From assembly GCF_057098645.1 (NCBI RefSeq), contig NZ_CM169472.1: DNA of 64,000 nucleotides. One strand, 5' to 3'. Below, piece after piece: positions 57,001 through 60,000 of the stretch; position 1 is the first letter of the stretch; each line of letters opens with the position of its first letter. A program made the position numbers.

Positions 57001-60000
57001 ATGAATAATTGCCTCTTTGCCCGTCATACACTTGCTCCTTTCAGTCCGAACTTAGCTTTAATTTCTGCGATCTTCGCCAGAGCCTGTGCTCGATTTAGAG
57101 GTCTGCCGCCCATGACAGGAAGTTGTTTTACTGGTTCAGGTATCGTCTCACCACGGTTAATTCGTGCTGTCATACAGGTCAGTTCATCGGCAGCCTTGCG
57201 CCGTAATTCCGCGTCAGTCAGCGCATTGGCCCGCATGTTCTGGTACAGGTTGGTAACCAGCCAGTAGTGCGCGTTTGATTTCCACGGATAAGACTCTGCA
57301 TCCGGATACAGGCCACGCTTCCGGCAATACTCGTAAACCATATCAACCAGCTCGCTGACGTTTGGCAGTCCGGCGATAACGGATGCTTCTTCCCGGCACC
57401 ATGCAACAAACTGCCCGGGTGATGGAAGAAATGGTCGATTCTGCCGACGGGCTACGCGCATTCCTGCGTTAACCTGTTCCATCGAGGTGATCCCGTTTTC
57501 CCGGAAAGCCAGAACCCACTGGCGGCGGATTTCATTCAGTTCGTTCTGGTCCCGGTTAGCCAGACTCGCCGGGAAAGTTGCCAGTAACTGGCTGAACACA
57601 CCGTTGATGATCTGCGCTACCTGTTGTACCTGCGGCTTTTCGTCGTACTGTTCCGGCATGTTGTTGGCGATCCGACGCATCTGCTCACGGTCAAAGTTAA
57701 CCATCTGTGCGGCGATGTTTTTCATAAATCCACCCCGTAAATCCAGTCAGTGTTTGTCAGGTCGAGTTTTGGTTTTCCAGCTGTCACGCCAGCCTGTTGC
57801 TTGTTACGGTTGATTTCGAGTTGGGTCCACTTGTCGCGGAGTTTGGCCGGACTTAGCACGTTACCGGACCAGAAGTTGTCCTGGCATGCCCAGCGGAACA
57901 GCACGCACATGTCGCGGTGGTTACGTCCGTCACGTTCACGCATCAGGCGGATATCGTTAGCCCACCCTGCAAAATTCGGTTTTCTGGCTGATGGTGCGAT
58001 GGTCTTCACCATGTCAAACATCCACTCTGCGGCGGTCAGGTCTTCTGCTGTTCCCCACTTGCTGCCGCTCTGAATTGCAGCATCCGGTTTAACCACAGAA
58101 AGATCGTTTTCTGGCTGGTCAGAGGATTCGCCAGAATTCTCTGACGAATAATCTTTTCTTTTTTCTTTTGTAATAGTGTCTTTTGTGTCCCCCTGTTTTG
58201 AGGGATAGCAATCCCCTAATTTGAGGGATGTTTTATCCCTCGTTTTAGGGGATTTTCCCTCGTTTTGAGGGATGTCCCTCATTTTAGGGGAACCTCCCTC
58301 GTTTTGAGGGATGCACCATTCTGAGATGTTTTTATTTGGTCCAAACATGCCGCCTTGCTGCTTGATAATATTCATTCTGACGAGTTCTAACTTGGCTTCA
58401 TTGCACCGTTTGACAGGTAACTTTGTAATCTCGCTAAGTTGAGAATCGGTGATTCTGTCCATTGGTTTATTCCACCCATAGGTTTTACGCAGAATGGCAA
58501 GCAGCACTTTAAACTGTCGCTTGGTCAGATCTGCGCCTGAATAAGCCTCAATCAGCATATTTGATAGTCTGGCGTAACCATCATCGAGATCTGCCACATT
58601 ACGCTCCTGTTCGGCAAAGTTACCTCTGCCGAAGTTGAGTATTTTTGCTGTATTTGTCATAATGACTCCTGTGGATTGATCCAGTAATTCCCTCAGAATT
58701 CCATCTGGATTTGTTCAGAACGCTCGGTTGCCGCCGGGCGTTTTTTATTGGTGATTCCATCAAGCGCATACTTAAAAGCCCTGCTAATCGGACTGATGTC
58801 TGATGCCATTCCGAAAGCACACAGGACCGAAGCAATAAACCGCCAGTCCGTTCTGCTTATCTTCGATTCATGACAGCCAATCATCTTTGCCAGACCGCGC
58901 TGGGTAAGTGTTGACAGGTTGATGAGTAAATCAGTTTCAGCGCGATCAATTTCTCGCTGTGATAGTTTGCTGTAACTTGTTTGTTCCATTTCTTAAGATT
59001 TCCAATAGTGAATAGCTAGTTGAAAGGTATGCGTGGAAACGCATATGGCCTTAGTTGGTCAGATATATTGGGACTCGCTTTGTCAGCGACGTAGGACGAA
59101 TGTCCATTGTGAAAATAGCGGTGTTACTTATGCAGCCGATGCTCTACGCGATACGAACACTAGGTTTTCCTTTTTCACAGGTTTATAACCCGTGAAATTA
59201 CGAGTAGCTTCTTCGATTGCATTCGCTTTATCAGGGGAAGCTCTTCGAAATCCATATGCAATCTGGTCAAGATAGCCAACTGAAGTTTTCGCTAATGCGG
59301 CGAGTCGCTTCCATTCCTCACTAGAAGCCTCTTTTCGCCAGCGTAGTAGTTCATTACTCATTAGTGCCTCCGTTTATCACACAGAACGACTTTACCATTT
59401 TGATAAATCAACTGCAATGTAAATTTATCATATTGCGTATTTATCCATTTGCTAAATAGAGGGAAAATTGTGAGATGGAAAACAAAGATATTCGCAAATC
59501 GAATCTGGCGTTTTTGCTAGATGAGCATAAAAAAATCGCGGGTAACACTAATGCAAGCTTTGCCGATAAGCTTGGGGTTAGCCCTTCTCAACTCACGCAA
59601 GTCTCCGGTGAAAAAAGCACTCGAAACATAGGGGATAAACTAGCAAGAAAATTTGAAGCCGCGCTTGGGTTACCTAATGGGTGGCTTGATTTGGTACATG
59701 ATGTAACACCAATTGCATCATGCTCAGATTCTTTAACTTTTGTCGGTCAGGTAAGAAAAGGGTTAGTGCGCGTGGTTGGTGAGGCAATTCTTGGTGTTGA
59801 TGGTGCCATCGAGATGACCGAAGAGCGCGATGGGTGGCTCAAAATTTATAGCGATGATCCAGATGCCTTTGGTCTTCGTGTGAAAGGAGACAGCATGTGG
59901 CCCAGAATAAAATCAGGAGAATATGTACTCATTGAGCCTAACACCAAAGTATTCCCGGGTGATGAGGTGTTTGTCAGAACCGTTGAAGGACACAACATGA

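Follow-up and report, generated by a model that had tools for sequence, protein, structure and literature searches.

In phage lambda, dimers of the initiator protein O bind the iterons of the origin through their N-terminal domain and bend the DNA as they build the O-some. The neighboring AT tract is destabilized, O brings in the P–DnaB complex through its C-terminal part, and DnaK, DnaJ and GrpE release DnaB. Iteron origins of theta plasmids are built in a similar way, with tandem initiator-binding repeats beside an AT-rich unwinding element. Unlike that class, however, a lambda-type origin lies inside the coding sequence of its initiator, a Phage_rep_O family protein that relies on P to recruit DnaB. 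We do not claim membership in the theta-plasmid iteron class for the origin analyzed here.

The lambda ori consists of four 18-bp iterons and a 38-bp AT-rich segment (bases 39034-39160 of J02459; PMC3349717). As cited in Kozlowska et al. 2020 (Front Mol Biosci 7:207, PMC7466680), Moore et al. 1981 reported that lambda replicates with three iterons. The origins of Stx phages have six iterons (1, 1', 1'', 2, 3*, 4) compared with the four of lambda, and the two extra iterons correspond to 13 more residues in O (PMC7466680). This form, oriStx, is carried by 933W, VT1-Sakai, H-19B, P27 and phage 22. Its original description, as well as differences in the dependence on DnaA, DksA and transcriptional activation, are credited to Nejman et al. 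2009 and 2011, here known through their citation in PMC7466680.

Kozlowska et al. examined origins with four and with six iterons in EMSA, DMS footprinting and plasmid transformation experiments. These covered iteron sequences identical to those analyzed here and the O proteins of 933W and P27. In EMSA, each isolated iteron was bound by all O proteins. On six-iteron templates, the four iterons nearest to the AT tract were efficiently protected, and the two distal ones were weakly bound. Iteron binding by Stx-type O proteins was weaker than by lambda O, and lambda plasmids were more dependent on transcriptional activation and DnaA. Synonymous destruction of iteron 1, iteron 1' or both abolished the establishment of a P27-derived plasmid. 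A comparison of four- and six-iteron origins has already largely been made in that study.

The O gene of a lambdoid prophage contains six iterons

We analyzed a stretch of 64,000 nucleotides of contig NZ_CM169472.1 (assembly GCF_057098645.1), referred to as the window; all coordinates are positions in it. Six 18-bp inverted-repeat iterons for O binding lie inside the O gene at 58189-58312 on the minus strand and together form an array of 124 bp. The origin and the genes around it are composed as follows.

57024..57725, minus strand: P gene, DnaB helicase loader and partner of O (Pfam Phage_lambda_P, PF06992, E 2e-61), with a 4-base overlap with the end of O
57722..58660, minus strand: O gene, replication initiator of 312 aa, containing the origin; 933W-type allele
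58150..58188, minus strand: AT-rich unwinding tract of 39 bp, 77% A+T and 74% purine on the O-sense strand; encodes DTKDTITKEKRKD
58189..58206, minus strand: iteron 4, ATCCCTCAAAACAGGGGG; matches lambda ITN4 and adjoins the AT-rich tract
58212..58229, minus strand: iteron 3*, ATCCCTCAAATTAGGGGA; differs from lambda ITN3 by a single G>A exchange, silent in O (L135, lambda numbering)
58236..58253, minus strand: iteron 2, ATCCCCTAAAACGAGGGA; matches lambda ITN2
58256..58273, minus strand: iteron 1'', ATCCCTCAAAACGAGGGA; same sequence as iteron 1 and lambda ITN1
58275..58292, minus strand: iteron 1', TTCCCCTAAAATGAGGGA; the other member of the extra pair, encodes SPKMRD
58275..58313, minus strand: 39-bp unit missing in lambda by alignment (two iterons, 13 codons)
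58295..58312, minus strand: iteron 1, ATCCCTCAAAACGAGGGA; farthest from the AT tract, encodes IPQNEG (codons 117-122)
58693..58989, minus strand: cII gene, immediately 5' of O, an arrangement shared with lambda (Pfam Phage_CII, E 7e-35)
59475-60179: LexA/S24-type repressor, divergent, beyond cII and a cro-like ORF

The name 3* is taken from PMC7466680. Under the scheme favored in that study iteron 1 belongs to the extra pair; the records of VT1-Sakai and 933W have 'ori iteron 1' at its position and 'ori iteron 2' at that of iteron 1'.

The O protein was assigned by Pfam Phage_rep_O (PF04492), which covers aa 22-115 with an E-value of 1e-35, and by phrog_277, 'replication initiation O-like', with an E-value of 1e-155. 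The window was searched with the degenerate motif TCCCYYAAAWYRRGGGR, allowing at most one mismatch. This resulted in 7 matches at 6 sites, one site being matched on both strands, and 100 shuffles gave an expectation of 0.01 matches. All of these sites are in the array, and the motif was found nowhere else in the 64-kb window. The sequence-only reading of this DNA had reported six iterons within 58185-58315, and indeed all six sites fall into this interval.

Start-to-start spacings of successive iterons are 20, 19, 20, 24 and 23 bp. Tandem Repeats Finder detected a repeat with a period of 39 bp (2.0 copies, 89% matches) over the first four iterons, and the 39-bp units differ from each other at 4 of 39 positions. 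The last iteron is directly flanked by the AT-rich tract.

The array is identical to characterized Stx-phage origins

The O gene was compared with phage records by megablast. Identity was 100% to LC727904 (an Stx1 phage), 99.9% to phage 22 (FJ655935), 98.5% to VT1-Sakai and P27, and 97.6% to lambda, where the match was split into two pieces and covered 900 bp instead of 939 bp. In 933W, VT1-Sakai and phage 22 the iteron array and the AT tract are base-for-base the same as in the window. The records of 933W (AF125520) and VT1-Sakai (AP000400) carry the annotation 'ori iteron 1-6' at the homologous positions, and the oligonucleotide p27_IT1_Fd of PMC7466680 is an exact match to 58291-58316. The oriStx phages also share the cII-O-P order with the prophage. 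Relative to them we noted one synonymous base difference, which lies past the AT tract at O nt 519; the VT1-Sakai O gene differs from the window O at 14 positions, with 0 in the iterons. Phage JLK-2012 was also among the six-iteron carriers that were matched.

Lambda has its origin at the same position in O, with P as the partner, but only four iterons are annotated there and the array is exactly 39 bp (13 aa) shorter. The alignment thus bears out the claim, made from the sequence alone, that the window has six iterons where lambda has four. As the origin is part of a coding sequence, the two additional iterons come as 39 bp, or 13 codons. Lambda iteron 3 has a G where the window has an A, whereas ITN1, ITN2, ITN4 and the AT tract are identical.

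BLASTP and a codon-level comparison were used to compare the O proteins. Lambda O has 299 aa, and apart from the 13 additional residues the window O differs from it by G17E, L37I and S282G. When the 39 bp were removed, the two genes differed at 19 of 900 nt, and all differences other than those causing the three exchanges were synonymous. G17E and L37I have been described in P27 O, and S282G is found in addition in 933W O (PMC7466680). Since the window O has all three exchanges, it represents the 933W allele; 933W O likewise has 312 aa and the 13 extra residues.

Thus the window has the iterons inside the O reading frame, a flanking AT tract, and a Phage_rep_O initiator followed by a P-type loader, as in lambda, together with one extra 39-bp iteron pair and the A variant in iteron 3, as in oriStx. 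The feature is almost certainly a theta-replicating origin of the lambda type in its six-iteron oriStx form, located within the prophage's own O gene, and nothing in the sequence speaks against identifying it as a lambda-type origin. At the level of sequence, both its anatomy and its identity to characterized origins are demonstrated. The array is an already annotated and experimentally characterized variant of the lambda origin and is not new. The sequence-only reading had overlooked this long-annotated status.

The prophage lacks stx genes at their usual site

The gene order around O is that of the lambda early-right operon in reversed orientation. Across window positions 45.7-64 kb the closest complete genome is E. 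coli 14EC001 with 99.7% identity. The usual stx site of Stx phages lies between Q and a nanS-p-like esterase, and in the window this region is occupied as follows.

46176-48026: nanS-p-like SASA esterase
48167-48333: STnc100 small RNA match, in the interval from Q to the esterase
48505-48966: TerB-family ORF, in the same interval
49186-49261: tRNA with anticodon CAT, a tRNA-Ile by annotation of the closest genome
49575-50063: Q antiterminator

Unlike in Stx phages, no stx-sized ORF was found between Q and the nanS-p-like esterase. Carriage by a Shiga-toxin-converting phage was therefore not seen here, a property that concerns the phage and not the type of origin.

Several other features of the window were recorded. 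An IS3-family element at about 61719-63000 on the minus strand lies between the ORFs of the immunity region and the N antiterminator (63523-63906). It has a transposase ORF at 61810-62697 and an ALIL frameshift pseudoknot at 62626-62742, and its insertion may disturb pL-driven early-left expression of the prophage. Directly 3' of the cI-like repressor, in the position of lambda rexAB, are three small ORFs on the plus strand (60240-61703). The first, 60240-60581 (DUF3024), matches the PADLOC candidate defence family PDC-S43 with an E-value of 7e-42; for those at 60598-61086 and 61083-61703 the only matches were PHROG families without an assigned function. On the plus strand at 52411-54183, and so in the opposite orientation to the surrounding nin-region genes, is an ORF of 590 aa that looks like a moron. 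It had no Pfam or PADLOC match, and its PHROG matches were only to families of unknown function, among them phrog_9230. Unrelated to the origin, an Rfam match to the OrzO-P antitoxin RNA was found at 3083-3158 on the plus strand (99.9 bits).

The extra iteron pair extends the interdomain linker of O

In the O translation IPQNEGGSPKMRD is followed by IPQNEGKSPKTRD (= CIPQNEGGSPKMRDIPQNEGKSPKTRD), which is the peptide duplication that had been quoted from the sequence alone. We placed the 13-residue insert by the Pfam and PHROG domain boundaries and by composition; a PDB sequence search with O gave no match. Residue 115 is the last of the Pfam DNA-binding domain, and the peptide encoded by the iterons begins at residue 117. 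Polar and disorder-promoting residues make up 85% of the ori-encoded residues 117-175 compared with 58-59% in the flanking domains. As the insert is in this polar linker, the 13 extra residues extend the connection between the domains and leave the fold uninterrupted. The linker position of the insert is demonstrated on these grounds of domain boundaries and composition.

Iteron number varies among E. coli genomes

A 201-bp segment spanning the array was used as a query against complete E. coli genome records. It was 99-100% identical in about 360 of these, and a further 899 records had 95-99% identity. We sampled 19 matches from the 95-99% band, and all 19 had the four-iteron form, with a 162-bp span matched in two pieces.

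Larger arrays were found as well. E. coli 03_3013 (NZ_CP074958.1, 3903704-3904681) has an intact eight-iteron O gene of 978 bp, encoding 325 aa (WP_111305069.1). Compared with the window it has one more exact copy of the 39-bp unit of iterons 1 and 1', in frame. This allele is rare, as only 2 of the 1339 matching E. coli records were at least 99% identical to a synthetic eight-iteron query, and we found no mention of an eight-iteron O allele in the literature searched. In E. coli O157:H7 7.1_Anguil (NZ_CP076232.1) five iterons result from a 23-bp duplication of iteron 3 and its spacer. Here O is a pseudogene, annotated as frameshifted by PGAP, and translation confirmed premature stops. About 75 records are in the same 80-90% identity band as this variant.

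An origin inside a reading frame is limited to expansions by a multiple of three bases, and in this array such a step is an iteron pair of 20 + 19 bp. The observed alleles fit the view that the initiator stays intact only when the array grows in frame, by 39 bp. Given the rare eight-iteron allele, iteron copy number may in part drift by slippage.

Alternative explanations for the extra iterons

The extra iterons might be neutral passengers, that is, an in-frame slippage duplication that is tolerated in a flexible linker and has no role in replication control. The steps of 39 bp between natural prophages with four, six and eight iterons are in line with this, as is the location of the insert in the polar linker beyond the Pfam domain. 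Moreover, lambda functions with four iterons, and whichever O protein was used, DMS footprinting showed hardly any protection of the distal iterons (PMC7466680). Nevertheless, we consider this explanation unlikely. Synonymous mutations of iterons 1 and 1' reduced transformation by the P27 plasmid from ~5 × 10^4 to <10 per microgram (PMC7466680, Table 2), and the six-iteron form is conserved base for base in many phages whose O genes otherwise differ.

Alternatively, selection could act on the protein, with the peptide repeat of O serving in spacing or partner binding and the DNA repeats arising as a by-product. The insert does lengthen the interdomain linker, and a spacer for a less compact O-some has been speculated on in PMC7466680. 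However, the repeat unit is the known inverted repeat bound by O, for which EMSA had shown binding of every single iteron, and mutations in iterons that spare the amino-acid sequence of O still kill plasmid establishment in cis (PMC7466680). Furthermore, the codon phases of successive iterons are 0, 2, 0, 2, 2 and 1. These differing phases indicate conservation at the level of DNA and not of the peptide. Based on the codon phases and the published result with synonymous mutations, we rejected the protein-level explanation, which is highly improbable.

That the six copies are an assembly or sequencing artefact of a true four-iteron origin has practically no probability: although tandem 39-bp units are of a kind that short-read assemblers can miscount, and rare five- and eight-iteron variants exist in other assemblies, the same six copies are present in the independent, Sanger-era records of 933W, VT1-Sakai and H-19B and in the PCR-cloned phages 22, 27 and 32, the differences between the 39-bp units argue against simple stutter, the array is shorter than a typical read, and the identical segment in about 360 complete E. 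coli records excludes this explanation. A collapse of the array to four iterons, which had been named as the outcome that would overturn the initial observation, is contradicted by the same array in 933W, VT1-Sakai, phage 22 and these E. coli records.

Discussion

The O gene in the window carries a lambda-type origin in its six-iteron form, and we infer that this prophage copy is functional, with the IS3-family element in its early-left region as a point against. By analogy with lambda, O dimers would bind the 18-bp iterons through the N-terminal domain (aa ~22-115), and bound O would bend the DNA and assemble the O-some. This assembly is expected to destabilize the AT-rich tract beside the iterons. 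The C-terminal part of O would then recruit the P–DnaB complex, and replication would start once host chaperones have freed DnaB.

If the binding hierarchy reported in PMC7466680 applies to this copy, the four iterons nearest to the AT tract (58189-58273) would form the strongly occupied core and the distal iterons (58275-58312) would act as weakly bound auxiliaries. Uncertainty is confined to what the distal pair does; probably it increases the concentration of O locally or stabilizes the O-some of a lower-affinity Stx-type O protein. The suggestion of the sequence-only reading that iteron number can affect initiator occupancy and replication control is supported by the published work, in which four iterons were bound strongly and two weakly and the extra iterons were needed for the P27-derived plasmid.

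One could also regard the array as a length-variable tuning locus, with natural alleles of four, six and eight iterons in steps of 39 bp (13 codons) and with a 23-bp step that destroys O. We regard this as a doubtful proposition. If it were true, iteron copy numbers that co-vary with O affinity alleles could set replication and lysis-lysogeny behavior, and the six-iteron form would not be tied to stx carriage.

When lambdoid prophages of the Stx type are induced, their replication drives both the dosage of the toxin genes and the spread of the phage. Therefore, the six-iteron origin is relevant to the virulence of EHEC, as has already been recognized. The window contains another copy of a known allele, and the prophage that carries it has no stx genes where they normally lie. 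The only point that this copy adds is that six-iteron origins are not confined to phages that carry the toxin.
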